Shown: positions 1-57,977, counted from the stretch's first letter. The stretch: DNA of 64,000 nt from an uncultured Actinomycetes bacterium (GCA_963783865.1 CAWAPD010000003.1:71171-135170), one strand, 5' to 3'. Program-made: numbers and translations. The notes: generated by a model from the sequence alone, not told the origin.

Positions 1-299
1 GGTACCTGCTGCTCGCCACCGGCCTGTTCTGCATCGGCGCCTACGGCGTGCTGGCGCGCCGCAACGTCGTGCTCATCGTCATGAGCCTCGAGCTGATGCT
101 CAACGCCGTGAACATCGCCCTCGTGGCCTTCGCCAACTTCGTCGACCTGCCCGAGTTCAGGCAGCGCGGCATCTACTTCGCGCTGTTCGTGATCACCATC
201 GCGGCGGCCGAGGTCACCGTGGGGCTGGCCATCATCGTCGCCAACTACCGCAACCGGCGCAGCGTGCAGACCGACGAGTTCAGCGAGATGAGAGGCTAG
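1..299 (+). CDS. nuoK: NADH-quinone oxidoreductase subunit K (5' partial; frame runs from position 3, stop TAG 297-299)
   Basis: Translation YLLLATGLFCIGAYGVLARRNVVLIVMSLELMLNAVNIALVAF... is a typical NuoK/ND4L sequence; it is followed immediately by nuoL. Confidence 0.85.
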   Translation, partial: YLLLATGLFCIGAYGVLARRNVVLIVMSLELMLNAVNIALVAFANFVDLPEFRQRGIYFALFVITIAAAEVTVGLAIIVANYRNRRSVQTDEFSEMRG

Positions 300-308
300 G
301 GGGGCGCG

Positions 309-2206: not shown

Positions 2207-2207
<1 letters not shown>
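309..2207 (+). CDS. nuoL: NADH-quinone oxidoreductase subunit L
   Basis: 632 aa polytopic membrane protein of the ND5/NuoL antiporter-like family (WEGVGLCSYLLISFW, HAATMVNAGVYL). GTG start at 309 with a GAGAGG RBS. Stop overlaps the nuoM start (ATGA). Confidence 0.9.
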
Positions 2208-3802
<1,595 letters not shown>

Positions 3803-5362
3803 ATGGGCGGCCCGATCCCGACGCCGCTCGAGGGCCAGGTGGCCGGCAACGCGTTCTGGCTGTTCCTGCCCGGCATCGTGACGGCGGCGACGGCGATCCT
3901 CGTGCTGCTGGTCGATGCCGTGCTGCCGCGCCGCCGGGCGGTGCTCGCCTGGGTGGCCGCGGCCGGCCTGGTCGCCGCCGCCGCCGTCGCTCTCGGACAG
4001 TGGATGACCTGGAAGGGCGGCTGGGCGCTGTACGGCGTCTTCACCGGCAAGCTCCGGTTCAGCGGGCGCGAGGCCGTCGCCGGCTTCCACAGCATGGTCT
4101 CGATGGACCAGTACGCGCTCTTCTTCGTCGTGCTGTTCTGCGTGATCGGCGTCGTCTCGATCATGCTGTCCGACGACTACCTCAAGCGGCACCGCACGCG
4201 GCCCGGCGAGTTCTACGCCCTGCTGCTGATGGTCGTGACCGGCATGATCGGCATGGCGGCGTCGACCGACCTGATCGCCCTCTTCGTCTCGTTCGAGCTC
4301 ATGTCGCTACCGACCTATGTGCTCGCCGGCTCCCTGAGCGGCGACCGACGGTCGGGCGAGGCGTCGCTCAAGTACTTCGTCAACGGCGCCTTCTCGTCGG
4401 CGATCCTCGTGTTCGGGATGGCGCTGCTGTACGGCCTGACGGGGGCGACGTCCTACGCGCAGATGCACGCCCAGGCCGGCTCGTTCCCGCTGACGAGCGG
4501 CCTCGGCGTCGCCGGCCTCGTGCTGGTGATCACCGGCTTCGGCTTCAAGATCGCCGCCGTCCCGTTCCACGGGTGGGCGCCCGACGTCTACGAGGGGGCG
4601 CCGACGCCGTTCACAGCCTTCATGTCGGTCGGCATCAAGGCCGCCGCCTTCGCCGGCCTGATGCGCCTGTTCGGCGTGGCGCTGATGCACGGCTCGCTGA
4701 TCTGGACCGACGCGCTCATCGTCCTCGCGGTGCTGACCATGGTCGTCGGCAACGTGCTGGCGCTGCCCCAGCGCAACATCAAGCGGATGCTCGCCTACTC
4801 CAGCATCGCCCACGCCGGCTACCTCCTGCTCGGCGTGATCGCCATGGGCCGTTCCCACTCCTCCGGGGGCGTGAGCGCCGTCCTGTTCTACCTCGTGGCC
4901 TACGCGTTCATGAACCTGGGCGCCTTCGGGATCCTGGTGCTGATCCGCAACCGGCAGGCCGAGTTCCACTACCGGCTCGACGAGATCGCCGGGCTCGCCA
5001 GGCGCATGCCGGTCGCTTCCCTTGCGATGACACTGTTCATGCTCTCGCTGACCGGTATCCCGCCGCTGGCCGGGTTCTGGGGCAAGTTCTTCATCTTCGC
5101 GGCCGCGGTCGACGCCCACCTGTGGTGGCTCGCAGTGGTCGCGGTCGTCATGAGCGCCGTGTCGGCCTTCTACTACCTGCGCGTCGTCTGGTACATGTAC
5201 TTCCGTGAGGCGGCCGGCGCCGAGCCCGCGCTCGAGCGCACGAGCGCCGGCATGCGGGGATCGCTGGCGGTGGCGGCGCTCGGGGTCGTGGTCATCGGGC
5301 TGTATCCGCAGCCGGTCATCGCCGCCGCCCAGAACGCGCTGCGTATCCTGCTCGGCGGCTGA
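3803..5362 (+). CDS. nuoN: NADH-quinone oxidoreductase subunit N
   Basis: 519 aa ND2/NuoN-like membrane protein. ATG immediately follows the nuoM stop TAG. Confidence 0.9.
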   Translation: MGGPIPTPLEGQVAGNAFWLFLPGIVTAATAILVLLVDAVLPRRRAVLAWVAAAGLVAAAAVALGQWMTWKGGWALYGVFTGKLRFSGREAVAGFHSMVSMDQYALFFVVLFCVIGVVSIMLSDDYLKRHRTRPGEFYALLLMVVTGMIGMAASTDLIALFVSFELMSLPTYVLAGSLSGDRRSGEASLKYFVNGAFSSAILVFGMALLYGLTGATSYAQMHAQAGSFPLTSGLGVAGLVLVITGFGFKIAAVPFHGWAPDVYEGAPTPFTAFMSVGIKAAAFAGLMRLFGVALMHGSLIWTDALIVLAVLTMVVGNVLALPQRNIKRMLAYSSIAHAGYLLLGVIAMGRSHSSGGVSAVLFYLVAYAFMNLGAFGILVLIRNRQAEFHYRLDEIAGLARRMPVASLAMTLFMLSLTGIPPLAGFWGKFFIFAAAVDAHLWWLAVVAVVMSAVSAFYYLRVVWYMYFREAAGAEPALERTSAGMRGSLAVAALGVVVIGLYPQPVIAAAQNALRILLGG

Positions 5363-5442
5363 GGCGCCGCCGCGCCGGCCCGGCCGTTCCGGTCCTGTAT
5401 ACTTCGCGGGGGCCGCTCCCGGCCCCCACGAAGGGAAACCTT

Positions 5443-6216
5443 GTGAAGATCCTGTTCCTCGGTGACGTGGTCGGCCAGCCCGGCCGCGACGCCGTGTTGC
5501 GGCACCTGCCACAGCTGATCGAAGAGCACGACGCCGACTTCGTCGTCGTCAACGGCGAGAACGCCGCCAACGGCGTCGGCATCACGTCGAAGATCGCCCT
5601 GCGCCTGCTGGCCGGCGGCGTGGACGTGATCACCACGGGCAACCACGTGTGGCGCCAGAAGGAGGTCTATCCCTTCCTGGCGGCCGACGACCGCATCGTG
5701 CGGCCGGCCAACTTCCCGGCCGCCAGCCCCGGCCGCGGTCTCACCTGCCGGCCCTCGCGCAGCGGCGAGCCGGTGGCGGTCATCAACCTCATGGGGAACC
5801 TGTACATCGACGCCGGCCTGTCGCCCTTCCGCATCGTGGAGCGGCTGGTCGAGGAGGCGGCGGCGCTGGCCGAGACGATCGTCGTCGACATGCACGCCGA
5901 GGCGACCAGCGAGAAGGTGGCCATGGGCCACCTTCTCGCTGGTCGCGTCACCGCCGTCATCGGCACGCACACGCACGTGCAGACGGCCGACGACGAGGTC
6001 CTGGCCCCCGGCACGGCGTATATCACCGACGTGGGCATGTGCGGCTCCCACGACTCGGTCATCGGGGTCAAGAAGGAGATCATCGTCCGCCGTTTCCTCA
6101 CCGAGATGCCGGCCCAGTTCGAGGTCGCCGACAGGGACGTGCGGCTGAACGGGGTGGTCGTGACCAGCGAAGGCGGACGCGCGATCGGCGTGCGGAGGCT
6201 TCTGCTACAGGATTAG
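5443..6216 (+). CDS. YmdB-like metallophosphoesterase (2',3'-cyclic-nucleotide phosphodiesterase family, TIGR00282-like)
   Basis: N-terminus KILFLGDVVGQPGRD...FVVVNGENAANGVGIT...GNHVW closely matches B. subtilis YmdB. GTG start with an AAGGGA RBS. Confidence 0.8.
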   Translation: MKILFLGDVVGQPGRDAVLRHLPQLIEEHDADFVVVNGENAANGVGITSKIALRLLAGGVDVITTGNHVWRQKEVYPFLAADDRIVRPANFPAASPGRGLTCRPSRSGEPVAVINLMGNLYIDAGLSPFRIVERLVEEAAALAETIVVDMHAEATSEKVAMGHLLAGRVTAVIGTHTHVQTADDEVLAPGTAYITDVGMCGSHDSVIGVKKEIIVRRFLTEMPAQFEVADRDVRLNGVVVTSEGGRAIGVRRLLLQD

Positions 6217-6316
6217 ACGAGGTACCATTTGGTCACCATCACCCCATGGAGGGCGGCCGATTGGGCGGCCGCCGAGGGCGGGTACTTGGTGATACGCGGT
6301 CAAGCGTGAGGGTCTG

Positions 6317-7828
6317 ATGGCTGGTGGGAGCGTCAAAGAGAAGACAGCATACGCCGTCGCGCAATCCTCCGTGCCTGCCTTCGAAGGCGAAGAGACTGCC
6401 TTCGCGCCGGCCGGTCGGCGGGTCTTCGTCACCGTCCTCGCCGACGTCGTGGCCATCCTTCTCGCCGACCTGCTCGCGATCGGCATCACACGCTGGCTGA
6501 CCGAGGCTCCGAGCGCGGGACGTGTGTTCGCCCAGTTCGACGTGGCGCCCAACGGCGGGGCGTTCGCCGTGCTCCTGCTGATCCCCTGGTGGTTGTTCGT
6601 GCTCTACTCCTTCGGGCTGTACCGGCAGGCGCAACGCAGCATCGGGGGGTCGAGCTTCGACGAGGCCATGCACGGCCTGACCGCCCTGACGGTCGGGGCA
6701 TGGCTGCTGACGCTGGCACTCCTGGTCGTCGAGGGCGACGACACGTCGCTCGGCTACGTCCTCGTCTTCTGGGCCGCGGCGGCCGTGACGATCCCCGCGA
6801 TGCGCTGGATCGCGCGTGCTGTTGTCTGGTCAGGCGACACTTTTGCGGAGCGCACGGTGATCATCGGCGCCGGCACCGTGGGCCACACCCTGGCGGCCAA
6901 GATCGACAAGCACCCCGAGTACCACCTGCGCCTCGTCGGGTTCCTCGACGACGGCGAGCCGCTGGGCCGGACCAACTCGTCGGTGCCGGTCGTCGGCCAC
7001 CTGTCCGACCTCGACGCGGTGATCCGCGAGAAGGAGGTCACGCGCGTCATCATCGCCTTCTCCCGCGCCCGCCACCAGCAGATCCTGAGCGTCGTGCGGA
7101 CCTGTGCGGAATACGGTGTGCGGGTGAACATCGTGCCGCGGCTGTTCGAGATCCTCAGCTCGCAGATGGCGCTTGACGACATCGAGGGCATCCCGCTGCT
7201 CGATGTCGCCAACGTCGAGCTCAGCCGGTTCAACATGCTCGTGAAGCGGGCGTTCGACCTGGTGGTCGGCGGCCTGATCTTCCTCATCACGCTGCCGGTC
7301 ATCGCCGTCCTGGCCACGCTCGTGAAGCTCGACTCGCCGGGTCCCGTGTTCTACCGGCAGCCGCGCGCGGGGCGCGGCGGGCGCGAGTTCCGCATCTTCA
7401 AGATGCGCTCCATGTACATCGACGCCGAGAAGCGGCGCAAGGAGCTGGCGGCGATGAACGAGTACTCGGGGCCGATGTTCAAGATCAAGGAGGACCCGCG
7501 GATCACGCGCCTCGGCGCCGTCATGCGGCGCTGGAGCCTCGACGAGCTGCCCCAGATCTTCAACGTCCTGTCGGGCGACATGAGCCTCGTGGGGCCACGG
7601 CCCCTGTGGGTCGAGGAGGCGAGGCAGTGCCGCGGCTGGACGCGCAAGCGGCTCGACATCACGCCCGGGATCACCGGTCTGTGGCAGGTCCTCGGCCGTA
7701 ACGACATCCCGTTCGACGAGATGGTCAAGCTCGACTATATGTACGTCACCGGCTGGACGCTGAGCTGGGACGTGAAGCTGCTGGCGCAGACCGTACCGGC
7801 CGTGCTCGGCCGGCGAGGCGCCTACTGA
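6317..7828 (+). CDS. Exopolysaccharide biosynthesis polyprenyl glycosylphosphotransferase (WbaP/EpsL-type priming sugar transferase)
   Basis: N-terminal TM segments, a CoA-binding-like middle region and a C-terminal bacterial sugar transferase domain (DSPGPVFYRQPRAG..REFRIFKMRSM...LDELPQIFNVLSGDMSLVGPRP). Confidence 0.85.
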   Translation: MAGGSVKEKTAYAVAQSSVPAFEGEETAFAPAGRRVFVTVLADVVAILLADLLAIGITRWLTEAPSAGRVFAQFDVAPNGGAFAVLLLIPWWLFVLYSFGLYRQAQRSIGGSSFDEAMHGLTALTVGAWLLTLALLVVEGDDTSLGYVLVFWAAAAVTIPAMRWIARAVVWSGDTFAERTVIIGAGTVGHTLAAKIDKHPEYHLRLVGFLDDGEPLGRTNSSVPVVGHLSDLDAVIREKEVTRVIIAFSRARHQQILSVVRTCAEYGVRVNIVPRLFEILSSQMALDDIEGIPLLDVANVELSRFNMLVKRAFDLVVGGLIFLITLPVIAVLATLVKLDSPGPVFYRQPRAGRGGREFRIFKMRSMYIDAEKRRKELAAMNEYSGPMFKIKEDPRITRLGAVMRRWSLDELPQIFNVLSGDMSLVGPRPLWVEEARQCRGWTRKRLDITPGITGLWQVLGRNDIPFDEMVKLDYMYVTGWTLSWDVKLLAQTVPAVLGRRGAY

Positions 7829-7852
7829 GGGCACGTCCGCCCGTCGCCGGCG

Positions 7853-9427
7853 GTGAGCCTGGTGGGAGACGATGCCGGCGACCGTGTGGCGACACGCACG
7901 GCGAAGGCAGCGGCCGACCACCCGCCCCCGAGGCGCTGGCAAGTGCCCAGTGAGGGTATGGGTGAAGGCATGACCATCCAGACAGACAGGCCCGCGCCGC
8001 GCGTGGTCGAGGCCGGGGGCAGCCGGATCGAGCTGTTCGTCGACGACCGCATCGCCCCCGACGCGCGTGCCCTCGACCAGCTCGCGGCGCTCAGCCGGCT
8101 GCCCCACGTCGTGTCGCCGGTGGTCGCCATGCCCGACATCCACTCCAAGGGCCGCAACCCGGCCCCCACGGGCATCGTCGTCGCCGTCGAGGGCGGCGTG
8201 GTGCCGCTGGCGCTCGACGCCGGTCTCAACTGCGGCATGCGCGTGCACGTGCTGGACGCCGTCGCCGACGAGCTTTCGGAGGAGCGCCTGCGGCAGCTGT
8301 TCGCCGCCCTCTCGGAGGCCGTGCCGACGGGATGGTGGCCCGAGCCGGTACTGAGCGATCCCGAGCTCGAGGGTGTCCTGCGGACCGGCGCGGCCTGGGT
8401 GGTCGACCGCCGGGACGGCCGTGGCGGACCGGTGGCCCGCATCGAGAACGGCGGCGCGATCCCCGACCCGAGCCCGCGCGAGGTCCTGACCGGGCGCGTG
8501 CGGCGGCGGGCGCTGCGCGGGCTCGGCGTCCTGGGCGCCGGCAACCACTTCCTGGAGCTGCACGTGGTCGACAGCGTCCTGCACGAGCACGCCGCCGCCC
8601 TCGGCCTCGAGGAGGGTCGCCTGCTGGCGATCCTTCACTCGGGCTCCGGCGTGGTCGGCAAGAACCTCGGGCTCTACTTCGGGGAGCGCGACGAGCTGCA
8701 CGGGCGCCGCAAGCGGCAGACCCGCGCCGAGAAGCTGGTCTACCACCTGTCGGCGCCCGGACCGCGAGGCGCCCGCCTGCAGCACTTCCGCAAGGAGTTC
8801 GCCTGGCTGGCCGCCGATTCGGTCGAGGGGCGGCGGTTCCTGCGGGCGGTCGCCGTGGCGGCCAACTACGGCTACGCCAACCGGGCCGCCATCGGGGCCG
8901 CCCTCGAGCAGGCCGTCGCCCGCACGCTCGGCCCGTCGGTCGGCGCGCCCCTGCTCTACGACGTCTCGCACGTCCTCGTCCAGCGTGAGCAGCATGCCGG
9001 GCGCGACCTGTTCGTCCATCGCCACGGGGCCAGCCGCGCCTTCCCGCCGAGCCTGATGCGCGCGTCGGGAGCCGACGCCCTGTTCGCCGTCACGGGGCAG
9101 CCGTTCCCGGTGCCGGGCTCGATGGGCGACCACAGCTACATCTGCGTCGGCAGCGAGGGCGCCGCCACGACCTATTTCTCGGCCAACCACGGGGCCGGCC
9201 GCACGCTCGACAAGCCGCAGGCGCGCGAGGCCTTCACCGCCGACGCCGTGCGCGAGCAGCTCTCGGACCGCGGCATCGCCCTATACCAGCACGGCGCCGA
9301 CCTGGGGCTGGCCGAACAGGCCCCGGGGGCGTTCAAGGACGTCGCCGCCGTGATCGACGTGATGCAGCGGCTCGACGTCGCCGTGCCCGTCGCGCGCACC
9401 ACGCCGCTCGCCACGATGAAGGGCTGA
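7853..9427 (+). CDS. RtcB-family (RNA 3'-phosphate ligase-like) protein embedded in the EPS operon
   Basis: RtcB signature motifs are present: AMPDIHSKG, LDAGLNCGM (metal-binding Cys), GAGNHFLELH, HRHGASRAF and SANHGAGR (the guanylylated His). The true start may be the internal GTG/ATG at MGEGMTIQ. Confidence 0.75.
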   Translation: MSLVGDDAGDRVATRTAKAAADHPPPRRWQVPSEGMGEGMTIQTDRPAPRVVEAGGSRIELFVDDRIAPDARALDQLAALSRLPHVVSPVVAMPDIHSKGRNPAPTGIVVAVEGGVVPLALDAGLNCGMRVHVLDAVADELSEERLRQLFAALSEAVPTGWWPEPVLSDPELEGVLRTGAAWVVDRRDGRGGPVARIENGGAIPDPSPREVLTGRVRRRALRGLGVLGAGNHFLELHVVDSVLHEHAAALGLEEGRLLAILHSGSGVVGKNLGLYFGERDELHGRRKRQTRAEKLVYHLSAPGPRGARLQHFRKEFAWLAADSVEGRRFLRAVAVAANYGYANRAAIGAALEQAVARTLGPSVGAPLLYDVSHVLVQREQHAGRDLFVHRHGASRAFPPSLMRASGADALFAVTGQPFPVPGSMGDHSYICVGSEGAATTYFSANHGAGRTLDKPQAREAFTADAVREQLSDRGIALYQHGADLGLAEQAPGAFKDVAAVIDVMQRLDVAVPVARTTPLATMKG

Positions 9428-9431
9428 CGCA

Positions 9432-10907
9432 GTGTACGAGCAGCTGCGGCGCCTGTTCCGCCACTCGGCCGCCTACACCGCGGGGAGCATGCTGAACAAG
9501 GCGTTCGCGTTCCTGCTCGTGCCGATCTACACGCGCAGCATGACGCGCGGCGACTACGGCGACCTCGCCTTGCTGGGCGCCGGCGCGGCCGTGCTCGCCG
9601 TCGCCTACGAGTTCGGCATCTCGTCGGCCGTGATGCGCTTCTACTACGACTACGACGACGAGGGCTCCCGGCGCCGCTACATCGGCTCGATGTGGCTGTT
9701 CGTGACGGTCGCCACCGGGCTCGTGACCCTCGCGCTGCTGTTCTCGGGACACTGGTTCCTCGGCGCTTTGTTCAAGGACATCCCCTTCTGGCCGTATGTC
9801 GGCTTCACCATCCTCTCGACGTTCCTGTCGGCGGCCAACGTCATCCCCTGGGTGCTGATCCGCATCCGCGAACAGTCGACCCGGTTCATCGTGCTCGTGC
9901 TGGGCCAGTCGGTGGTGCTGGCCATCGCCGTGCTCGTGTTCGTGGTCGGCCTGCACCTCGGACTGCTCGGCGCCGTGCTGGCGGTCTTCGTGCAATCGTG
10001 CGCGATCTACGTGTTCTTCACCGCCTACACCTTGCGCAACGCCTCGCTGCGCGGCGTGGCCTGGGCGTTCGTGGCCGGCTCGGTCAAGTACGGGATGCCG
10101 GTGCTGCTGCTGCAGGCGGGGTGGTGGGTCCTGGACGCGTCGGACCGGTTCCTGCTGCGCCACTGGCGCCCCGCGTCGATCGTCGCGCTCTACAGCGTGG
10201 GGTACGCCATCGGGCGCATCCTGATCATGGTCTCGCAGGCGATCAACCAGGCCTGGACGCCGTTCTTCTACGCCACGGTCAAGGAGAAGAACCCCGACGC
10301 CAAGCGCCTGTTCAGCTACACGGCCACCTACTACACGCTCGTGGTCAGCGCTCTCGGGCTGGTCGTCGTCGTGTTCGCCCGCGAGGCGGTGCTGTTCTTC
10401 GGCGGACACGCGTACCTGCAGGCCGAGCGGGTGACGCCCCTGATCATGCTCGCCGCGGTGATCCAGAGCATGTTCTACGTGCCGAGCCGCGGCATCTTCC
10501 TGCAGAAGCGCACCGGCCTGCTGCCGCTGATCCTCGGCGCCGGGGCTGCCGTCAACGTGGGGCTGAACCTGTGGCTGATCCCGGCCTACGGGATGATGGG
10601 CGCCGCGGTCGCGACCGTCGCCGGCTACGCGGTCGCCGTCGCGTTCACCTTCGTCGTCTCGCAGCGGCTGTACCCGATCGACTACCAGGTCGGCCGCATG
10701 GCGACGATCTTCGCCGTGCTGATCGCGCTGTCGACGGCCGCCACGCTGGTCCATCCATCGGTGTGGTACGTTGCCGTGCTGTGGAAGATAAGCCTGCTGC
10801 TGGCGGCGCCGGTGGCGCTGTGGGCGCTCGGTTTCTTCGAGGACGCCGAGATCGCCAGGCTGCGGCACCTGCTGGCGCGACGCCGGTCGGTGGGGGAGGC
10901 GACGTGA
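9432..10907 (+). CDS. Wzx-like oligosaccharide flippase (MOP/polysaccharide biosynthesis protein family)
   Basis: 491 aa with about 12-14 predicted TM helices. The N-terminus FRHSAAYTAGSMLNKAFAFLLVPIYTRSM is typical of Wzx/PST-family flippases. Confidence 0.75.
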   Translation: MYEQLRRLFRHSAAYTAGSMLNKAFAFLLVPIYTRSMTRGDYGDLALLGAGAAVLAVAYEFGISSAVMRFYYDYDDEGSRRRYIGSMWLFVTVATGLVTLALLFSGHWFLGALFKDIPFWPYVGFTILSTFLSAANVIPWVLIRIREQSTRFIVLVLGQSVVLAIAVLVFVVGLHLGLLGAVLAVFVQSCAIYVFFTAYTLRNASLRGVAWAFVAGSVKYGMPVLLLQAGWWVLDASDRFLLRHWRPASIVALYSVGYAIGRILIMVSQAINQAWTPFFYATVKEKNPDAKRLFSYTATYYTLVVSALGLVVVVFAREAVLFFGGHAYLQAERVTPLIMLAAVIQSMFYVPSRGIFLQKRTGLLPLILGAGAAVNVGLNLWLIPAYGMMGAAVATVAGYAVAVAFTFVVSQRLYPIDYQVGRMATIFAVLIALSTAATLVHPSVWYVAVLWKISLLLAAPVALWALGFFEDAEIARLRHLLARRRSVGEAT

Positions 10908-12289
10908 GCGGAGGCACTCGGGATGGAGGCAGGCCCGACGGCACGGGGCGGGGCGGTCCGCTGCGCCACGTCCTGATCCTCGTCCAGAACCTGTCCGTGC
11001 CGCTCGACCGGCGCGTGTGGAACGAGTGCCGCACCCTGACCGCCGCCGGCTACGAGGTGTCGGTCGTCTGCCCGCGGGGCCGCACCCACGACCGCCGGTT
11101 CGTCGAGACGGTGGCCGGCGTGCGCATCTATCGTTATTCGGCGCCGCGCACGCTGCCCGGGCTCGCCGGCTACATCTGGGAGTACGGCTACGCGCTCACG
11201 TGCACGCTCCTGCTCGCGCTGGTCGCCTACGCGCGGCGCCCGTTCCAGGCCATCCACGCCTGCAACCCGCCCGACCTGTTCTTCCTGATCGGGCGCTTCT
11301 TCGGCCGCTTCGGCGTGGCCTACCTGTTCGACCACCACGACGCCAACCCCGAGATCCTGGTGGCCAAGCGCGGCGGCACGCCCGGGCACGGGTTCCCGGA
11401 ACTGGTGGTCGACTGGGCCGAGCATGGCAACTTCACGACCGCCGAGGTGGTCGTCTCGCCCAACGGCTCGTACCGCGACATCGCCCTGGGCAGGGGCGGA
11501 CGGCGACCGGAAGACGTGTTCCTGGTGCGCAGCGCGCCGTGGCTCGAGGAGTTCCCGGCCGGCGGCCCGGCCGGGTTCGACCGGCGCGGGCACGAGTTCC
11601 TCGTCGGCTACCTCGGCGTGATGGGCGTGCAGGACGGCGTCGACGTGCTGGTCCGCGCAGCGGCCCTGCTCGTCGACGCCGGCTACGACCTGCTGCTGTA
11701 CCTGGCCGGCGGCGGCGAGTCGTACGACGAGGTCGCGGCGCTCGCCGCCGAGCTCGGCATCGCCGACCGCGTGCTCATGCCCGGCTACCAGGACCGCGAC
11801 CAGTTCGGGCCGCCGCTGCGCAGCGCCGACGTGTGCGTGGCGCCCGACCCGCCGGGGCCGTTCAACGACATCTCGACGATGAACAAGATCGTCGAGTACA
11901 TGGCGCTGGGGCGCCCGGCCGTGGCCTTCGGGCTGCCCGAGAACCGCGTGTCGGGCGGCGACGCGGTGGTCTACGCCGAGGAGCCGACGGCCGAGGGCCT
12001 GGCGACCGCGATCGGGGCCGTGCTCGAGCTCGGCCCCGAGCGCGAGGAGCTGGCCCGCCGCGGCCGTCGCCGGTTCGAGCAGGCGCTCGCCTGGGAGCAC
12101 TCGCAGGCGCCCCTCCTGGCCGCCTACGAGCGCCTGGAGGAGCGCATGCGGGAGGGGGCGCGAGAGGGTCAAGCTTCCACGGGTGCGCCCGAGGGCGACG
12201 GTGCGGGGGCGCCGGGCGCCTCGAGCGGCGGCGAGCGGGTCGAGGCGTTCGAGGGGGCGAGACGAGGCGTTCGAGGGGGCGGGCCGTGA
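10904..12289 (+). CDS. Glycosyltransferase family 4 (GT-B, group 1)
   Basis: GTG 10904 overlaps the flippase stop (GTGA). VLILVQNLSVPLDRRVWNE is a GT4 N-terminal domain. The C-terminal domain carries the E..E region (KIVEYMALGRPAVAF). Confidence 0.8.
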   Translation: MSGGTRDGGRPDGTGRGGPLRHVLILVQNLSVPLDRRVWNECRTLTAAGYEVSVVCPRGRTHDRRFVETVAGVRIYRYSAPRTLPGLAGYIWEYGYALTCTLLLALVAYARRPFQAIHACNPPDLFFLIGRFFGRFGVAYLFDHHDANPEILVAKRGGTPGHGFPELVVDWAEHGNFTTAEVVVSPNGSYRDIALGRGGRRPEDVFLVRSAPWLEEFPAGGPAGFDRRGHEFLVGYLGVMGVQDGVDVLVRAAALLVDAGYDLLLYLAGGGESYDEVAALAAELGIADRVLMPGYQDRDQFGPPLRSADVCVAPDPPGPFNDISTMNKIVEYMALGRPAVAFGLPENRVSGGDAVVYAEEPTAEGLATAIGAVLELGPEREELARRGRRRFEQALAWEHSQAPLLAAYERLEERMREGAREGQASTGAPEGDGAGAPGASSGGERVEAFEGARRGVRGGGP

Positions 12290-13359
12290 GTGACGCGTCG
12301 CCGGCAGGCGGCAGCAGGACGATCGTCGCGCCGCAGGCGACGACGGACCCGGGGGGCGCCGCGGCGCCCGCCGTGCTCACGACCGTCGACCTGGGCGACG
12401 TCGCCGTCGCGCTGGAGGCGCCGGCCGAGCTGGCCGGGTTCGTGCGCGAGCGCTTCGCCCTTGCGCCGCCCGGCGCAAGGCCCGTCGTCGCCTCGCGCGT
12501 CGTCGCGGGGCCGGCGCCGGCCGGCGGCGTGCGCCGCGGCCGGCGCATCGCCGAATCGGCCGGCCGGGTGTGGTGCCGCAGCTTCCCGGGGCTGCCGGAG
12601 CTGACGGTGGCGGTGGCGCGGGGCGCTGCCGGCGGCGCGCGGCCGGAGATCGACACGGAGGTCTACTTCGACCGGCCCGGCTGGGTGCGGCTGTACAAGC
12701 GCCTGGTGGCCGGCGTCGGCGCCGAGCAGACGTGGGAGCAGCTCTCGTTCTACGGCCTGCTGTTCCCGGCTCTGCTCGCCGCCGAGCGGCGGGGACGGTT
12801 TCCGCTGCATGCCGGCGCTGTGGCTCGCGACGGCCGCGCCCTGGTGCTCAGCGGCCTGCCCGGCTGTGGCAAGTCGACGGTGGCGGCGGCGCTCGAACGG
12901 CGGGGATGGACGCTCGCCTCGGACAACCTGGTGACCGTGTCGGCCGAGGAGGTCTGGCCGCTGCCCGAGCCGGTGCGACTCGACGCCGGTTCGCGGGCCC
13001 TGGCCCGTGTCGACGAGGGTGACGGGGCGGCGGCGACGTACGGGCGCACGGCGCGGCGCCTCGAGGCGCCGAGCCGTGCGCTCGCCGCCGCCGCCCTGGT
13101 GCTGCTCGAGCGCGGCGACCGCACGTCGCTGGAGGCGGCCGAGGTCTCGGCCGGACACCTGCTCGACCTCGGCCGCCTCGCCTACGAGCTGCACGCCTAC
13201 GACCTGTACCGCGCGTTCGCCCGGCTCGCCGTCGGCGGGCCGCCGGCCGTTGAAGAGGCGACCGTGGCCGCGTGGCTGGCGCCGCTGCGCACCGTACACC
13301 TGAGCGTGGCCGACGGCGAGGTGGACGCGGCCTGCGACCTGCTCGGGGAGCTGGCGTGA
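12286..13359 (+). CDS. HPr-kinase-C-domain-like P-loop protein (HprK-related kinase family)
   Basis: GTG 12286 overlaps the GT4 stop. The core LHAGAVARDGRALVLSGLPGCGKSTVAAALERRGWTLASDNLV matches the HprK C-terminal P-loop signature (lHa.av...G.gvLl.G.sG.GKS..al.L..rGh.LvaDD). Confidence 0.65.
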   Translation: MSDASPAGGSRTIVAPQATTDPGGAAAPAVLTTVDLGDVAVALEAPAELAGFVRERFALAPPGARPVVASRVVAGPAPAGGVRRGRRIAESAGRVWCRSFPGLPELTVAVARGAAGGARPEIDTEVYFDRPGWVRLYKRLVAGVGAEQTWEQLSFYGLLFPALLAAERRGRFPLHAGAVARDGRALVLSGLPGCGKSTVAAALERRGWTLASDNLVTVSAEEVWPLPEPVRLDAGSRALARVDEGDGAAATYGRTARRLEAPSRALAAAALVLLERGDRTSLEAAEVSAGHLLDLGRLAYELHAYDLYRAFARLAVGGPPAVEEATVAAWLAPLRTVHLSVADGEVDAACDLLGELA

Positions 13360-14315
13360 GCGGCGGGCTCTTCCTGTCGTGGGCGCCCTTCTCGCGCCGC
13401 ACCGAGACGCTGGCGCGCCGCTTCGGGCTCCGGGAGGCGTTCGTCGGCAGCCCCTGGCCCAAGCGCCCGCTGTACGCCCCGCTCAAGTACCCCGCCCAGG
13501 CGGCGCGCACGCTGGCGCTGCTGGCCCGCGAACGGCCGGCGAGCCTGTGGGTGATGGACCCGCCCCTGCCCGCCGTCGCGCTCGCGGCGGCCGTGGCTCG
13601 CCGCCGCCGCGTGCCGCTGATCGTCGACGTCCACACGGTCGACTTCTACGACCCCAAGTGGCTGGCGCTGAAGCCGCTCGAACGCCCCCTGCTGCGCGGG
13701 GCCGACGCCGTGGTCGTGACGAACCGTTCGCTGGCTCGGCGCGTGCTCGGCTGGGGCTGCGAGGCGTTCGTCCTGCCCGATCCGCTGCCCGAGCCGCCGG
13801 CGCTGGGCGAGGTGGCCGTCGTGCCCCGGTCGGCGACCGTGGTCGCCACGTTCTCCGACGACGAACCCTTGCACCTGCTGCCAGCGGTCGCCAAGCTGCT
13901 GCCGGACGTCGAGATCCGCGTCACCGGCGAGCCGCGAGGGCGCGACGCCGGCTGGCCCGCCAACCTGCGGGCGACCGGCTTCCTCGACGACGAGGTCTAC
14001 TGGCGCACGCTGGCCGCCTCGGCGGCGGTCGTGGTCCTGACCACGCGACCCGACACGCTGCTGTCGGGCGGCTACGAGGCGCTCGCCCTGCGACGGCCGC
14101 TGGTCGTCTCCGACCAGGCGGTTCTGCGCGAGTACTTCGGAGACGCGGCGATCTACGCCGGGGTCACCGCCGAGGAGGTCGCGGGGGCGATCGGCGAGGC
14201 GCTGGCCCGCGGCGACGAGCTCACGCCGAAGCTCGATGCGCTGGCCCTGCGCCGCGAGGCGGAGTGGAGCGAGGCGGCGGTCGCGCTCGCCAGGGTCGCG
14301 GATGGGCGGCGGTGA
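13356..14315 (+). CDS. Glycosyltransferase-like protein (GT-B C-terminal-domain type)
   Basis: GTG 13356 overlaps the upstream stop. The C-terminal half (VVVLTTRPDTLLSGGYEALALRRPLVVSD) resembles a GT1/GT4 donor-binding Rossmann domain. Confidence 0.5.
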   Translation: MSGGLFLSWAPFSRRTETLARRFGLREAFVGSPWPKRPLYAPLKYPAQAARTLALLARERPASLWVMDPPLPAVALAAAVARRRRVPLIVDVHTVDFYDPKWLALKPLERPLLRGADAVVVTNRSLARRVLGWGCEAFVLPDPLPEPPALGEVAVVPRSATVVATFSDDEPLHLLPAVAKLLPDVEIRVTGEPRGRDAGWPANLRATGFLDDEVYWRTLAASAAVVVLTTRPDTLLSGGYEALALRRPLVVSDQAVLREYFGDAAIYAGVTAEEVAGAIGEALARGDELTPKLDALALRREAEWSEAAVALARVADGRR

Positions 14316-16261
14316 GCGGGCTCGTCGCCATCGTCTCGCGCGCCGCCGCCGCGCGCGCCCGCGGCCCCGCCGCCCTCGCGCGGCTGGCCCACACGCCGGC
14401 GTTCGAGAGCGCCTGCGCCGAGGCCGGCCGGCTGTGGATGGGGGCCTGCGGACTGCCGGGGACGGCTTCAGTGGGCTCGCCGGCCCCCGCCGCCGACGCC
14501 GCCACGAGCACGCCCGTCGTAGCTGCCGTCGCAGGCCACATCCTCAACGGCGCCGCGCTGCGCCGAGAGCTCGGACTCGCGCCGGGGAGCGACGACGCCG
14601 GCCTCGTGGCGGCCGCGTACGCGGCCTGGGGGGCCGGCCTGTTCGGCCGCCTCGAGGGAAGGTTCGCCCTGGTCGTGCACGACGAGGCCGCGGACCTCAC
14701 CTTGGCGGGCAACGACCCGTATGGTGTCCTGCCGCTCGTGCGGACCTCCCTGGGCGACGACCTCCTGCTCGCCACCGAGGCGAAGGCCCTGACCGCCGAC
14801 CCCCGCTTCCCGGCGCGGCTGGACGAGGCCGCGCTGGGCAGGCAGCTGCTGTTCGGCCAGCAATACGGCGAGGCGACGCTGTTCGCCGGTGTCCTCGAGC
14901 TCGAGCAGGGTACCCACTTCGAGCTGCGTGGCGACAAGGCGAGCGCCGTCCGCCACTGGGACCCGCGCGCGGCCATCGGCCCCAGCCTGCGCGGGGAAGC
15001 GTATGTCGAGCGCCTGGTCGAGACGATCGCCGGGATCGCCGGTGAGGCGTTCGACGGCGAGGCGATCGCGCTTCCCCTTACCGGCGGCCTCGACTCGCGC
15101 CTGCTGGCGGCGGCCATGCCGGCCGCGGCGGGACCGATGGCGGCGACTTTCGGCGCGCCGGCCGACGACGACTGCCGGCGCGCGGGACAGGTCGCCGCGG
15201 CGCGGGGGCTGCCCTACCGCGTGGTCCCGTTCGAGACGGACTACGTGGCGCGACACGCGCTCGAGACGGTCTGGCTGACCGAGGGCCGTCAGAACCCCGT
15301 CGACAACATCACCGGCTGCCTCATGCCCAGCCTGCGGCCCGCCGCCGAGTTCGTCAGCGGCATCTCCGCCATGGCGCGCGGCCACAACGCGGTGCGCGCG
15401 CGACTCGTGCCCGATTGGGACCTGATCGGTGCGACCGACGCCGGGCTCGAGTCCTGGCTGCGGGGTTATGCCGCGCGGCCGAGCCTCGACGCGAGCCAGG
15501 TCGGGTCCCTGTTCGGCGACCGCGGCCGCGAGCTGATCGCGCTCGCCGGCGAGAGCTTCGACCGGGCGGTCGAGGGCACGCGGGGCATGCCCGCCCTCGA
15601 CCGCCTCGACCTCTACCAGGTGACCGAGCGCGTGGGCGGCTACAACTGCCCCGGGCTCAACCTGGCGTCGGTCTGGCTCGGCGCCAGGGCGCCGTACCTC
15701 ACGCGCCGCTGGGTCGAGGCCGTCTTCGCGGGCGACGTCCTGGAGGGGGTCGACGACCTGCCGCGCCTGCGAGCCATCCGCCGGCTCGACCCCCGCGTGG
15801 CACGCGTCCCATGGGTCCTCACCGGGCTGTCGCTTGGGGCCAGCGAGCCGGTGGTCCTGGCCGTGAGGCAGGCTGCGAGGCTCGTGCCAGCCGCCGCGGG
15901 GAACCCGGATCCGGGTACGGTGGGAGCCGGGAACCGAGGACGGCAGACCGGCGCCCCGCCGCGGCGGGGCGCGCCGGCCGCCCTCCGGCGCGCGGCCGCG
16001 ACCGCCAGGCACCGTCTGTATCGCCACGGTGAACGGCGCGAGGAGTGGCTGCGCACCGCCTCGCGACCCTGGGTCGAGGAGGTGCTGCTCGCGGAGCGGA
16101 CCGCGGACCGCGGGTCCATGCGGCCCGAGGCGGTGCGGCGCCTCCTCGACGAGCAGTGGGCGGGTCAGGACCGCTCCTCCGCCATCGGACAGCTCCTCAA
16201 CCTCGAGCTGTGGCAGCGGTTGTTCGTAGACGGCGACACTGCGCCCGAGGTCGCCCCGTGA
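14312..16261 (+). CDS. Asparagine synthetase B-like amidotransferase (EPS-associated, lacks the N-terminal Cys nucleophile)
   Basis: GTG 14312 overlaps the upstream stop. The PP-loop LTGGLDSRLLAAAM (SGGxDS) and class-II GATase-like N-domain are present, but the N-terminus reads VSGLVAIV rather than MCG. Confidence 0.7.
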   Translation: MSGLVAIVSRAAAARARGPAALARLAHTPAFESACAEAGRLWMGACGLPGTASVGSPAPAADAATSTPVVAAVAGHILNGAALRRELGLAPGSDDAGLVAAAYAAWGAGLFGRLEGRFALVVHDEAADLTLAGNDPYGVLPLVRTSLGDDLLLATEAKALTADPRFPARLDEAALGRQLLFGQQYGEATLFAGVLELEQGTHFELRGDKASAVRHWDPRAAIGPSLRGEAYVERLVETIAGIAGEAFDGEAIALPLTGGLDSRLLAAAMPAAAGPMAATFGAPADDDCRRAGQVAAARGLPYRVVPFETDYVARHALETVWLTEGRQNPVDNITGCLMPSLRPAAEFVSGISAMARGHNAVRARLVPDWDLIGATDAGLESWLRGYAARPSLDASQVGSLFGDRGRELIALAGESFDRAVEGTRGMPALDRLDLYQVTERVGGYNCPGLNLASVWLGARAPYLTRRWVEAVFAGDVLEGVDDLPRLRAIRRLDPRVARVPWVLTGLSLGASEPVVLAVRQAARLVPAAAGNPDPGTVGAGNRGRQTGAPPRRGAPAALRRAAATARHRLYRHGERREEWLRTASRPWVEEVLLAERTADRGSMRPEAVRRLLDEQWAGQDRSSAIGQLLNLELWQRLFVDGDTAPEVAP

Positions 16262-17496
16262 AGCTCCTCGTCCTCGGCCACAACGATTGGTGGGTGTGGG
16301 CGCGCCAGGACTTCTGCACGCGCAACGGGGCCCTGGTGCGGGCCCTCGCGCGGCGGCCCGAGGTCGAGCGCATCGTCGTCGTCGACTCCCCGCGCTACCG
16401 CACGCGCTCGCACCGCCCCGAAGAGCGCCGCGGCGAGGAGGTCACGGAGGTCGCGCCCCGCATCGTCGCCCTGCGCCACGCCTATCCGGTGCCGGCCCCG
16501 GCCCGTTCACGCGAGGGCTGGCGCCTCAACGACGCGCTCACGCGCCGCCGTCTGGTCGACGCCTGCCGGCGGGCGCTGGCCGGCGGCGACGGCGAGGGTG
16601 GGGACGAAGCCGGCGACGAGACGGTCGGGAACGGGCCGGGCGGCACGGACGACGTGGTCGTGTGGGTCGCCGATCCCAGGCTCGCCTGGGCGGGGATCGC
16701 CTGCGCCGGCGGCGACCTGCTCGTGTTCGACGCGATCGACGACTGGCGGTTCCACCCCTGGGCGGGCCACCGCCTGGTCGACGAGGGCTACCACGCGATC
16801 GCCGACGCGGCCGACATCGTGACCGCGGTAACGCCCACGCTGCTCGAGACGCTCGCTCCGCGCGGCCGGCGGCACTCCCTCTTCAACGCGATCGACCCGG
16901 CCGCGTGGGCCGGCGTGCGGGCCGATCCCGGCCCGCTCGCCGGCCTGCCGCGGCCGGTCGTCGGCTATGTGGGCACGCTGCAGGCGCGCATCGACCCGGG
17001 GCTCGTCGTCGGCCTCGCGCGCGAGATGCCCGAGGCGACCTTCGTCCTGGCCGGCCCGGCGTTCCGCGGGTTCGGGCTCGACCCGGGGTCGATGCCGCTC
17101 AACGTGCGCCTGCTCGGGCCGGTCCCCCACCCCAGGGTGCCGGGTCTGCTGACGGCGTTCGACGCCTGCTTCATGCCGCATCTGACCGGCGGGCTGGCGA
17201 CGACCATGGACCCGTTGAAGCTGTACGAGTACCTGGCCGCCGGGCGACCGGTCGTGAGCACGCTGGCGCCCCCCAACCCGATCCTGACGCCGCACGTGCG
17301 CGTGGCGGCCGACCCGGCGGCCATGGCGGCCGCGCTGCGCGAGGAGCTGGCAGGCGACGACGCCGCGCGCCGCGAGGCGCGGCGCGCGGCGGTCGGGACC
17401 GAGACCTGGGAGGCGCGGGCCGCCGAGGTCGTGGGCCTGCTGCAGGAGGGCCTGACGGCCAAGAGAGACACGCCGCCGGCGGGGGCGCGGACATGA
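16258..17496 (+). CDS. Glycosyltransferase family 1/4 (GT-B)
   Basis: GTG 16258 overlaps the AsnB-like stop. C-terminal GT-B domain (LDPLKLYEYLAAGRPVVST). Confidence 0.65.
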   Translation: MKLLVLGHNDWWVWARQDFCTRNGALVRALARRPEVERIVVVDSPRYRTRSHRPEERRGEEVTEVAPRIVALRHAYPVPAPARSREGWRLNDALTRRRLVDACRRALAGGDGEGGDEAGDETVGNGPGGTDDVVVWVADPRLAWAGIACAGGDLLVFDAIDDWRFHPWAGHRLVDEGYHAIADAADIVTAVTPTLLETLAPRGRRHSLFNAIDPAAWAGVRADPGPLAGLPRPVVGYVGTLQARIDPGLVVGLAREMPEATFVLAGPAFRGFGLDPGSMPLNVRLLGPVPHPRVPGLLTAFDACFMPHLTGGLATTMDPLKLYEYLAAGRPVVSTLAPPNPILTPHVRVAADPAAMAAALREELAGDDAARREARRAAVGTETWEARAAEVVGLLQEGLTAKRDTPPAGART

Positions 17497-18380
17497 GCGC
17501 TGCTGGCGATGCCGGCGTCTGGGCGATCGTCGCCCACTACGGCGACCCCGGGCCCACGCGGCGCTGCCTGCGGGCGTTGGGCGACGCCGTGCCGCCGGAG
17601 CGCCGCCTCGTCGTCGACAACCAGGGCGGGTTCGACGACGAGGCGGCGCTCGTGCTGCGGCCCGGCGCCAACATCGGCTTCGCCGGGGCGGCCGCCCTCG
17701 GCGCGCGCCGGGCGCGCGCCGAGGGCGGCCGTTGGCTCTGGTTCGTGAACAACGACGCCGAGGTGAGCGGCGACTGCCTCGGGGCGCTGCTCGAGGCCGG
17801 CGCCGCGGACGCCGCGGCAGGCTTCCTCAGCCCGGTGATCACCTATGGGGCGACCGACGAGGTGTGGTTCGCCGGCGGCTTCGTCGACGAGGGGTCGCTG
17901 CGCACCGGCCATACGACCGCCGTGCAGGGCGACCGCCCGTACCCGACCGGCTACGTGACCGGCTGCGCGATGCTCGTGCGGGGCGAGGTGGTCGACACCT
18001 GCGGCGTGCCCGACGAGCGCCTGTTCATGTACCTGGAGGACGTGGACTGGTGCCTGCGCGGCCGCCAGCGCGGCTGGCGGTCGCTGGTGGTGCCGGGGGC
18101 GCGGGCCGGCCACGACGTCGAGCGGCGCGACCGCCGCCGCGTGTTCTCGGCCCGTGCCGTGTACTACGTGACCCGCAACCGCCTGCTGGTGGCTCGCCGC
18201 TCGACCACCCCGGCCCGCGCCCTGCCGCCGGCCCTCGACTGGGCCGGCCGCCAGGCGCTCAAGGGCGGCGACGCGGGCGGCGTGGCCCGGGCGAGCCTCG
18301 CGCTCGCGGCCGGCCTGGCCGACGGCCTGGCCGGCCGCTCTGGTCGCGCCACCCCCGGGCTCGAACGTATGCTGGACTGA
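17493..18380 (+). CDS. Glycosyltransferase family 2
   Basis: ATG 17493 overlaps the upstream stop (ATGA). The pattern WAIVAHYGDP...VDNQGG..., a DxD-like LEDVDW and GT2 topology are present. Confidence 0.7.
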   Translation: MSAAGDAGVWAIVAHYGDPGPTRRCLRALGDAVPPERRLVVDNQGGFDDEAALVLRPGANIGFAGAAALGARRARAEGGRWLWFVNNDAEVSGDCLGALLEAGAADAAAGFLSPVITYGATDEVWFAGGFVDEGSLRTGHTTAVQGDRPYPTGYVTGCAMLVRGEVVDTCGVPDERLFMYLEDVDWCLRGRQRGWRSLVVPGARAGHDVERRDRRRVFSARAVYYVTRNRLLVARRSTTPARALPPALDWAGRQALKGGDAGGVARASLALAAGLADGLAGRSGRATPGLERMLD

Positions 18381-19801
18381 TGCGCGCCCTGCTGTCACGT
18401 GACCGCATGGTGTTCGCCGGCGCGTCGGCGATGCTGCTGCTGTTGCTGCTGGCCGTGGCGATGCGCTCCGTGCTGCTGGGCATCGCGGCGGCGGCGCTCA
18501 TCGGGATGCTGCTGCTCGTCCTGCCGCTGGCCGGCACCCGGCGCGGCAACGTCGTGCTCGTGTCGGCGCTGCTGGTGGTCACCTTCATCCTGCCTTCGTC
18601 CATCGTCTACGCGTACAGGATCCCGGCGCTGGGCGGCGGCATCACCGTCGTCGACTGCCTCTACGGGCTGCTGCTCGCCAGCTGGATCGTCTGGTTGCTG
18701 ACCGACGGCTCGATCCTGCCGTCGCGCCTCAACGTGCCCCTCCTGGTCTTCCTGGTGTGGATAGTGGCCGCGGCCGCCATCGGCCGCCAGCACGGCAACG
18801 ACCTCAAGCTGATCCTGCAGGACTTCCGGCCCCTGGCCTACTACGGGATGTTCTGGATCGTGGCCTCGATCACCACCCGGCGCACGCTGGACTGGTGGCT
18901 GAAGCTCCTCGGCGCCGGTCTGGTGCTCAACTTCCTGTTCGGCCTTGCGCTCACCGCGATGGGCGAGGGGCGCTCGACCGGGTTCGTGCAGGAGGGCGTC
19001 TCGCGCTTCCCGGCTCCCAACGACCACTTCCTCATGGGGTCGGTGCTCATCGCGGCGCTGCTGTTCACGTGGCCCCACGAGGGGCAGCGCCGGCCGCGCG
19101 TGCTCTGGGTCCTGCTCGCCCTGTGCCTCGCCGGCCTGGGGATGTCGCTGGTGCGGGGGTACTGGCTGGGGGTCGTCGCCGGCATGTTGTACCTGCTGCT
19201 GGTGATGCGCACCAGCGAGCGCATGCGCATGATCGCCGGTGTCACGATCACGGTGGCGATGCTCGCCAGCGCCGCGGCCGTCGTGCGCCCGGCGCTCGTC
19301 AGCTCGATCGCCACCAGGGGCGCGGCCGTGACGGCCGTGCAGGACCCGAACGTGCAGTGGCGGCTGATCGAGAACCGGGCGGTCCTGGCGCAGGTGCGGG
19401 CCCACCCGCTGACGGGCAACGGTCTGGGGCAGGAGTACCTGTTCGACTTCTCGGCGTACGGCGTCAAGCCCTACTACAAGTCGTACATCCACAACAACTA
19501 CCTGTGGCTGGCGCAGCGGATGGGCGCCGTCGGGGTCTGCCTGTTCGTCTGGGTCGTGCTCGCGTTCCTGTTCCCGAGGGAGCGGCTGAACGAGTTGCGC
19601 GAGCGCGCCGATCCCTGGCAGTGGGGCCTCATCGTCGGCTCGCGCGCGTTGATCGTCGCCGACCTCGTCGTGTCGGTCACCTCGCCGCAGTTCGTGTCGT
19701 CGTCGAACATCGTGCCGCTGGCGGTGATGCTGGCGATGGCGGAGGCCGCCCGGGTCCAGGCCATGCGGCAGGGGGAGCAGGAGCCGGCCGCCGTCGAGTG
19801 A
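18380..19801 (+). CDS. O-antigen ligase/polymerase (Wzy-like) family membrane protein
   Basis: ATG 18380 overlaps the GT2 stop. About 10-12 TM helices with a large periplasmic-type loop (YIHNNYLWLAQRMG, Wzy_C-like). Confidence 0.7.
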   Translation: MRALLSRDRMVFAGASAMLLLLLLAVAMRSVLLGIAAAALIGMLLLVLPLAGTRRGNVVLVSALLVVTFILPSSIVYAYRIPALGGGITVVDCLYGLLLASWIVWLLTDGSILPSRLNVPLLVFLVWIVAAAAIGRQHGNDLKLILQDFRPLAYYGMFWIVASITTRRTLDWWLKLLGAGLVLNFLFGLALTAMGEGRSTGFVQEGVSRFPAPNDHFLMGSVLIAALLFTWPHEGQRRPRVLWVLLALCLAGLGMSLVRGYWLGVVAGMLYLLLVMRTSERMRMIAGVTITVAMLASAAAVVRPALVSSIATRGAAVTAVQDPNVQWRLIENRAVLAQVRAHPLTGNGLGQEYLFDFSAYGVKPYYKSYIHNNYLWLAQRMGAVGVCLFVWVVLAFLFPRERLNELRERADPWQWGLIVGSRALIVADLVVSVTSPQFVSSSNIVPLAVMLAMAEAARVQAMRQGEQEPAAVE

Positions 19802-21206: not shown

Positions 21207-21341
21207 ACGGGATGAGTCGGCACTCCCCGGGGGACCTTGAGGACGTACGGGCTAATGCGTTGCCCGCTCAGACGACGGACTCGCGGGCGACGGGACAGGC
21301 CGGCGGGAACGAGCGGCAGCCGCCACCCGGCGGCGACGGGA

Positions 21342-22895: not shown

Positions 22896-22910
22896 GTGCT
22901 CCCTAGTATC

Positions 22911-24356: not shown

Positions 24357-24882
24357 GGAAGCTCCACAGCTTGTTGGCCACGAAGTTGACGGGCATCACC
24401 GTGACGATCGCCAGGAGCTGGCTCGCGAGGAGGCTGAGTCCGATCTGGGCATGACACAGCCAGAATACCGTGAGGTTGCCGGCGTAGGCGACCACGCTGA
24501 CGGTGAAGAACTTCGGCAGCTCCCGCGCGACGGGGTTGCCGGAACGGAACGTCCACCAGCGGTTGAGATAGTAGTTGGTGAACACCGACACGACGAAGCC
24601 GCAGAGGTTGGCCAGGTACCCGGCGGCGCGGGCGATGTCGCCGGTGTGCTTGAACACGATCTCGCCGCTGTAGTGGCGGACGTCGGCGAAGGAGTGGACG
24701 TCGCCGGCCACGGCCACCCACAGGAGCAGCGTGAGCGTGAACACGACGAGGTTCACGACGACGCCGCTGATGCCGACCAGCGCGAACTTCAGGAACTGCT
24801 TGACGCTCTCGTTCAGACCACGGTCCATGGCCATCCGGGTCGAGACGGAAGGATGCCCGGGCGGGCCGGGCAGGGCCATCAT
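24340..24882 (-). CDS. GtrA family protein (polysaccharide synthesis membrane protein)
   Basis: KQFLKFALVGISGVVVNLVVF...YYLNRWWTF is the GtrA signature. Four TM helices. The true start is probably the internal MAMDRG. Confidence 0.75.
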   Translation of the reverse strand: MMALPGPPGHPSVSTRMAMDRGLNESVKQFLKFALVGISGVVVNLVVFTLTLLLWVAVAGDVHSFADVRHYSGEIVFKHTGDIARAAGYLANLCGFVVSVFTNYYLNRWWTFRSGNPVARELPKFFTVSVVAYAGNLTVFWLCHAQIGLSLLASQLLAIVTVMPVNFVANKLWSFRESQS

Positions 24883-57952: not shown

Positions 57953-57977
57953 CCGAAGCTTTGACGTACGCGGCGGT

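Follow-up and report, generated by a model that had tools for sequence, protein, structure and literature searches.

What does a protein with the catalytic core of an HPr kinase/phosphorylase (HprK/P) do in the middle of a polysaccharide operon? The question is raised by a gene at positions 12286-13359 of a 64,000 nucleotide (nt) stretch of DNA from an uncultured Actinomycetes bacterium (GCA_963783865.1 CAWAPD010000003.1:71171-135170; this whole stretch is called the window here). The original prediction, made from the sequence of the window, had seen in it an unmistakable HprK signature and, together with a nearby RtcB-like gene, a hint of phosphate chemistry on the polymer, with a sugar hydroxyl or a carrier protein as the possible substrate. 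The protein very probably has the fold of the phosphoenolpyruvate carboxykinase (PEPCK)/HprK superfamily and belongs to it, and its conserved partner is RtcB rather than either of the glycosyltransferases whose genes flank it.

The window has a G+C content of about 70%, so lists of open reading frames (ORFs) taken raw say little. In a plot of G+C by codon position, the signal of high third-position G+C (GC3) from about 12240 to 13320 follows the frame that starts at 12286, and the gene is a member of a continuous + strand series that runs from 6317 to 19801. Its GTG start is preceded by GAGGGGG and overlaps the stop codon (TGA) with which the upstream gene ends (GTGA), and its own TGA (13357-13359) overlaps the GTG start (13356) of the downstream gene in the same way; Pfam identifies both flanking genes as GT4-type glycosyltransferases. 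The product carries the motifs LHAGAV (residues 174-179), GLPGCGKST (190-198) and SDNLV (212-216), and its N-terminal peptide VSDASPAG is common to the 90% identical homolog P0002. This is a genuine gene, start/stop-coupled between two GT4 genes in a polysaccharide locus, and the overlaps at both ends together with the codon-position signal bear out the translational coupling that had been read from the window. The position between two glycosyltransferases is peculiar to the window and to the closely related loci L007 and L022; the neighbors that are conserved throughout are Wzx and RtcB.

The 3′ end of the upstream GT4 gene contains a 22-nt tandem duplication (window 12221-12284; the unit is about TCGAGGGGGCG...GAGGCGT) that is not present in the 90%-related locus L007. 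The unit is not a multiple of 3, so the final GT4 codons are read in another frame; the stop in both frames is supplied by GTGAGTGA, and the overlap with the kinase-like gene is 4 nt in the window and 8 nt in L007. An ENA metagenome contig (L001) encodes the identical kinase-like protein, and at its positions 11071-13976 (window 13356-16261) the reading frames of the GT4-like and AsnB-like genes are interrupted; tblastn recovers these genes in two and three pieces, respectively. The gene calls are fragmented there, whereas the window ORFs are unbroken, and the breaks are probably indel errors of that assembly.

To which family does the protein belong? As far as profile searches can tell, it is a soluble, cytoplasmic, two-domain P-loop phosphotransferase-like protein and a minimal member of the PEPCK/HprK superfamily. 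Pfam gave generic P-loop (AAA) matches below threshold and neither Hpr_kinase_C nor PEPCK_ATP. The best NCBIfam match, as the prediction had led one to expect, was an HprK-related family, HprK-related kinase A (TIGR04352, E=3.6e-16), but it scored 59.1 bits against a 200-bit cutoff and was limited to residues 164-234 of the protein (model positions 89-161 of 280). The HprK_rel_B and ScmC matches were weaker (30.5 bits against a 125-bit cutoff for TIGR04249, ScmC), and neither TIGR00679 nor Hpr_kinase_C matched at E<=0.01. The label PF27840 "ScmC" stands on the identical public protein, from precomputed annotation only. By these scores the protein falls short of membership in HprK/P, HprK_rel_A, ScmC and PEPCK alike. 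Thus the HprK signature holds at the level of the superfamily, but every cutoff of a named HprK-related family is missed, and the second Asp of the signature is an Asn. The best match was not to an unrelated P-loop family such as the sulfotransferases, the outcome named beforehand as refuting the assignment. A phmmer search of the PDB with the 86 amino acid core was swamped by ABC-transporter Walker A sites, so the motif alone is not diagnostic and the search was set aside.

The tight subfamily around the protein is very small (6 representatives at E<1e-30 in an exhaustive profile search), and the wider, distant family of roughly 350 amino acid proteins that align end to end gave 305 matches at E<1e-10 and 15,440 at E<1e-3. 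A profile scan of genome contigs (A1) returned distant relatives only, and a scan of metagenomes returned one locus. When 44 aligned members were compared with the models, 43 matched HprK_rel_A, 38 HprK_rel_B, 12 ScmC, 6 PEPCK and 5 true HprK. The family profile matched ATP-dependent PEPCK in the PDB at 8e-6 and HprK at 2e-3, 264 residues of the chain were aligned with PEPCK vs 118 with the HprK C-domain, and all P-loop kinases outside PEPCK/HprK stayed below 7 in the comparison. In an hhalign comparison with Escherichia coli PckA (92.8%, E=4e-7), the protein (357 vs 540 amino acids) shows no alignment outside its residues 168-236. The C-terminal P-loop catalytic domain has the PEPCK-like fold, as in HprK/P, and the whole chain is closer to a minimal PEPCK than to the HprK C-domain alone. 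The protein is placed in an uncharacterized family found in glycan-biosynthesis loci. It differs from HprK/P in having no Hpr_kinase_N, as had been predicted, in having an extra N-terminal β-rich domain, and in lying in a polysaccharide locus with RtcB instead of a phosphotransferase system (PTS)/HPr/CcpA context; the predicted lack of PTS genes agrees with the annotated high-GC3 ORFs that pass the filter across the window, where PTS, RtcA, RtcR, archease and PqqD genes were looked for and none was found. From ScmC of the SynChlorMet cassette, with which it shares the PF27840 label and for which we know of no function, it differs in its sub-cutoff score and in having neither PqqD nor radical SAM/SPASM neighbors in the window.

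The nucleotide-binding and catalytic core is intact and under selection. By hhalign, H175 corresponds to PckA H232, K196/S197 to K254/T255 and D213-N214 to D268-D269. H175 is invariant in 161 of 161 relatives, K196 is present in 160 of 161, and position 213 is Asp or Glu in 159 of 161; Glu228 and Arg254 are also strongly conserved in the alignment, as is the Walker A motif. The S-D213-N214 triplet presumably represents the "ADD" site of HprK, judging by ungapped colinearity and by residue numbering; the second Asp of that motif is the proposed catalytic base. At the corresponding position 214 the 161 relatives have Asn (117), Asp (29) or Glu (8). Relatives with "DD" are more distant and of the lasso type; the RtcB-linked relative in locus L009 also has a classical DD.

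What stays with this gene when its surroundings change? The order RtcB, Wzx, (GT4), kinase-like gene is kept in all six distinct related high-GC loci that have enough flank (the window, L002, L004 with 25 contigs, L007, L023 and L024). The loci that hold homologs of 45-49% identity are rearranged. The Wzx and kinase-like genes overlap by 4 nt in L002, L004, L023 and L024; a GT4 gene is inserted between them in the window and in L007 and is absent there in those four, and a dissimilar GT4 occupies the place of the window GT4 in L022. The upstream fragments of L023 and L024 are RtcB C-termini. In L002 the glycosyltransferase block has been relocated upstream and the RtcB-Wzx-kinase triad is unbroken. 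Between loci the kinase-like protein is less conserved than RtcB (58-65% identical) and Wzx (62-66%). An Acetyltransf_6 (FemAB-like) gene follows the kinase-like gene in L004 (8913-11380) and L024 (2762-6347). A second Polysacc_synt flippase gene comes immediately after it in L004; in L024 a DegT gene separates the two. With two flippases in these loci, one would be dedicated to the RtcB/kinase module.

The pairing extends to other phyla. A full-length relative in an Armatimonadia metagenome-assembled genome (MAG; L009, 209 bits) overlaps its RtcB gene by 14 nt, and GT2 and DegT genes adjoin the pair. A profile of the linked RtcBs led to three further clade members that were chosen for their long contigs, from a Calditrichia MAG (L027), a KSB1-like MAG (L028) and an unclassified one (L026); in all three a kinase-like gene lies directly upstream of RtcB, and the proteins (356-371 amino acids) match the family profile over their full length at 276 (L026), 251 (L027) and 300 bits (L028). 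The neighborhoods of these three (about 1-17,500 of each) share an APH/LxmK-like kinase gene, two GT4 genes, a HisKA sensor kinase and an OmpR-type regulator, (His_Phos_1), and then the kinase-like gene and RtcB; downstream of RtcB lie a GT4 or AsnB-like gene and one or more genes for signal-peptide DUF5666 proteins. All three encode an MFP/MacB-type ABC exporter, and in L027 and L028, but not in L026, an OEP gene can be seen as well; the specific parts of these neighborhoods carry no curated NCBIfam names. Thus the pair is found in three operon architectures, with the gene order reversed between the window group and the others. Each of the roughly 11 loci is of the glycosyltransferase/export kind. 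The link to the RtcB-like gene that had been drawn from the window is strongly supported because the pairing is conserved across phyla, and the two proteins probably are functional partners. Other full-length relatives lie in L008 (Binatia; 289 bits), next to nucleotide-sugar enzyme genes and a GT4, and in the polysaccharide plus radical-SAM locus L017. In L017 (2532-6704; also in L018 and L019) four successive genes for proteins of about 335-357 amino acids, with faint Pfam matches or none, adjoin radical SAM/SPASM and "PFTS_polysacc" genes of a marine polysaccharide locus; the full-length family member (237 bits) is one of the four, a second matches PEPCK_ATP weakly, and the set may consist of tandem paralogs within the kinase-like family.

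The RtcB of the window retains, in comparison with Pyrococcus horikoshii RtcB (1uc2), Cys98, Asn202, His203, Glu206, His234 and His329, the GMP-accepting His404 within HGAGR, and Lys480. The linked RtcBs form a coherent clade in which (V/I/L)DxG(I/L/V)NCGMR replaces the canonical GYDINCG, and the window protein is below the cutoff of all NCBIfam RtcB models, including PRK09588 and release_rtcB. A loss of the Asp95 metal ligand was considered and rejected: the Asp is shifted by two residues in a clade-wide motif, and only L009 lacks it. With the RtcBA-RtcR, PrfH-RtcB2 and archease-RtcB modules of RNA repair the window RtcB thus has in common a full-length RtcB, the nucleotidyl-His and the metal and GTP ligands, but it differs in the clade motif and in being paired, within glycan loci, with a protein of the PEPCK/HprK fold rather than with RtcA, RtcR, PrfH or archease; PrfH, too, is missing from the annotated window.

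RtcB transfers GMP from GTP onto a phosphomonoester, which is then attacked by a hydroxyl. The explanation that we favor is a combined pathway built on this chemistry, in which the kinase-like protein would use ATP to phosphorylate a hydroxyl of a glycan intermediate at the cytoplasmic face, most likely the undecaprenyl-diphosphate-linked repeat unit under construction by the neighboring glycosyltransferases. RtcB with GTP would activate this phosphomonoester as X-O-P-P-G and join it to a second hydroxyl, giving a phosphodiester-linked substituent or bridge, and the modified unit would be exported by the dedicated, translationally coupled and co-evolving Wzx flippase, or by a MacB/OEP exporter in its place in the Gram-negative-type loci. 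This full mechanism is tentative, and we give it somewhat less than an even chance; it is doubtful that the kinase-like protein and the specialized RtcB clade constitute an unrecognized two-enzyme route to phosphodiester linkages in glycoconjugates.

Several points weigh against the glycan pathway. To our knowledge, the characterized enzymes of the HprK branch all phosphorylate Ser of proteins or peptides and the characterized RtcBs all act on nucleic acids. The Asn at the second Asp position (PckA Asp269), in the protein as in most of its relatives, could alter or abolish phosphotransfer. RtcB was not seen in the visible flanks of L008 and L017, so the partnership is not universal, and the roughly 11 distinct loci are a small sample picked partly by available sequence length. 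Finally, the APH/LxmK-like kinase, the partly lasso-cyclase-like AsnB and the MacB exporter of the cross-phylum loci fit a peptide product as well.

That last point, and the Ser specificity of the characterized relatives, would also suit a protein or peptide Ser/Thr kinase like HprK or the lasso-peptide kinases, which seems to us unlikely. It could phosphorylate a protein, secreted or serving as a carrier, before that protein is glycosylated, or else a regulatory target such as the flippase, BY-kinase or initiating transferase, and RtcB would act on phospho-Ser in a protein phosphoglycosylation. Distant "DD/DE" relatives do lie in lasso-like loci with PqqD, Transglut_core3 and NTP_transf_5 (around P0161). 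HprK homologs phosphorylate the hydroxyl of the C-terminal Ser of lasso-peptide precursors, as the original prediction had it for HprK-related kinases, and in pseudomycoidin a hexose is put on the phosphate by a second enzyme in a nucleotidyltransferase-mediated phosphoglycosylation (PMC8498205). The HprK-related kinases A and B and the lasso kinases (TIGR04352/TIGR04355; PadeK, ThcoK, SyanK and pseudomycoidin kinase) resemble the window protein in length and core, and the likeness extends to the theme of a kinase whose newly added phosphate is elaborated by another enzyme. On the other hand, PqqD/RRE, a leader protease and a conserved small precursor gene are absent from the window and the related high-GC loci, the fold search gave no RRE-like match to the N-terminal domain, and the DUF5666 proteins resemble accessory proteins of the periplasm more than precursors. 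The AsnB-like gene of the window scores higher as an Asn synthase (TIGR01536, 81 bits) and as an exopolysaccharide-type amidotransferase (63 bits) than as a lasso cyclase (38 bits). A reading of the window itself as a lasso or RiPP cluster was rejected on the missing PqqD, protease and precursor genes and on this score; the kinase-like gene has no transglutaminase-like protease or NTP_transf_5 neighbor in its locus, its partner is RtcB and its context is Wzx/Wzy polysaccharide synthesis.

Less probable again, and distinctly unlikely, is a nucleic-acid end-healing and sealing pair whose position in a glycan locus reflects co-regulation under envelope stress. RNA and DNA ends are the only proven substrates of RtcB, its catalytic residues are intact here, and it is established that P-loop polynucleotide kinases commonly accompany RNA ligases; but a 5′-kinase would destroy the 5′-OH substrate of RtcB, the annotated window has none of the usual RtcB companion genes named above, a flippase gene is translationally coupled between RtcB and the kinase-like gene in the related high-GC loci, and all of the loci are glycosyltransferase/export loci. 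A defense system was likewise rejected, with no PADLOC match for three kinase-like proteins and three RtcBs. That the protein is no kinase at all but serves as a scaffold or regulator that binds nucleotides, or is an enzyme of the phosphorylase/phosphatase type in which the Asn has abolished phosphotransfer to substrate, is very unlikely: the replacement of a PckA metal ligand (D269) and, by colinearity, of the second HprK Asp, and the faster divergence than RtcB or Wzx, are answered by the strongly conserved Walker A, His175, Asp213, Glu228 and Arg254, by an Asn that is itself conserved (which implies a selected function) and able to ligate metal, and by the classical DD of the RtcB-linked relative in L009.

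The locus that holds the kinase-like gene is, on its Pfam and NCBIfam annotation, a Wzx/Wzy-type polysaccharide locus of about 6.3-25.0 kb (Table 1), bordered by housekeeping genes, with nuo genes and YmdB at one end and IleRS at the other. Its GT87 and GtrA genes, together with the G+C content of the window, would by themselves point to a probable actinobacterial source. The YmdB-like metallophosphoesterase belongs to the family of the Bacillus subtilis 2′,3′-cyclic-nucleotide phosphodiesterase, which makes it an intriguing neighbor for an RtcB; it was rejected as a part of the module, since the other related loci show no such gene as far as their available sequence extends. Toward the distal end of the window a phage-integrase-family gene (54050-55384, + strand) adjoins a stretch at about 56000-60000 with a G+C content of 0.62-0.65 vs about 0.70, and these may be an integrated mobile element.

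Table 1. Predicted genes of the polysaccharide locus and its upstream border, with core motifs of the kinase-like protein
Feature	Position	Strand	Remarks
YmdB-like metallophosphoesterase	5443-6216	+	Pfam 332 bits; directly upstream of initiating glycosylphosphotransferase
Polyprenyl glycosylphosphotransferase, initiating (Bac_transf)	6317-7828	+	TIGR03025 403 bits; locus start
RtcB-clade ligase	7853-9427	+	Pfam RtcB 305 bits; probable start ATG 7943, 494 amino acids
Wzx-like MOP flippase (Polysacc_synt)	9432-10907	+	About 10 hydrophobic segments
GT4 glycosyltransferase	10904-12289	+	Upstream of kinase-like gene
PEPCK/HprK-fold P-loop kinase-like protein	12286-13359	+	357 amino acids; cytoplasmic
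LHAGAV motif including His175	12805-12822	+	His175 corresponds to His232 of E. coli PckA
Walker A P-loop GLPGCGKST (G190-T198)	12853-12879	+	K196 aligns to PckA K254
S212-D213-N214 "kinase-2" motif	12919-12927	+	Aligned to PckA G267-D268-D269
GT4-like glycosyltransferase	13356-14315	+	Downstream of kinase-like gene
AsnB-like glutamine amidotransferase	14312-16261	+	Recurs in L004 and L028
GT1-like gene	16258-17496	+	Same operon
GT2 gene	17493-18380	+	Same operon
Wzy_C polymerase/ligase-like gene	18380-19801	+	Same operon
Alginate-lyase-like, Wzz/BY-kinase-like, GT87 and GtrA genes	19860-24996	-	Divergent arm

In the public record the two proteins are named "hypothetical protein" (the kinase-like one) and "RtcB family protein", and neither NCBIfam nor PADLOC has a model for the pair. 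A full-text search of the literature found nothing relevant on RtcB with HprK, exopolysaccharide or glycosyltransferase, or on HPr kinase with polysaccharide biosynthesis, and a search on DUF5666 and ScmC likewise found nothing relevant. The kinase-RtcB module in glycan loci thus appears to be undescribed; the kinase-like protein itself is a variant within a known superfamily. RtcB has been viewed as a dedicated nucleic-acid ligase and kinases of the HprK type as enzymes that phosphorylate Ser in proteins or peptides, and a conserved, often overlapping pair of the two in several phyla and three architectures points to an unstudied shared function. If the pair acts on glycans, RtcB chemistry would reach beyond RNA and DNA, and the phosphodiester substituents of some polysaccharides would be explained without CDP- or UDP-activated donors; the two genes could then serve as a marker by which phosphorylated exopolysaccharides are predicted. 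A peptide or RNA substrate would still leave the pair as a new, testable system, and if the glycan pathway is correct it would represent a new and widespread way of tailoring the surface polysaccharides of bacteria.

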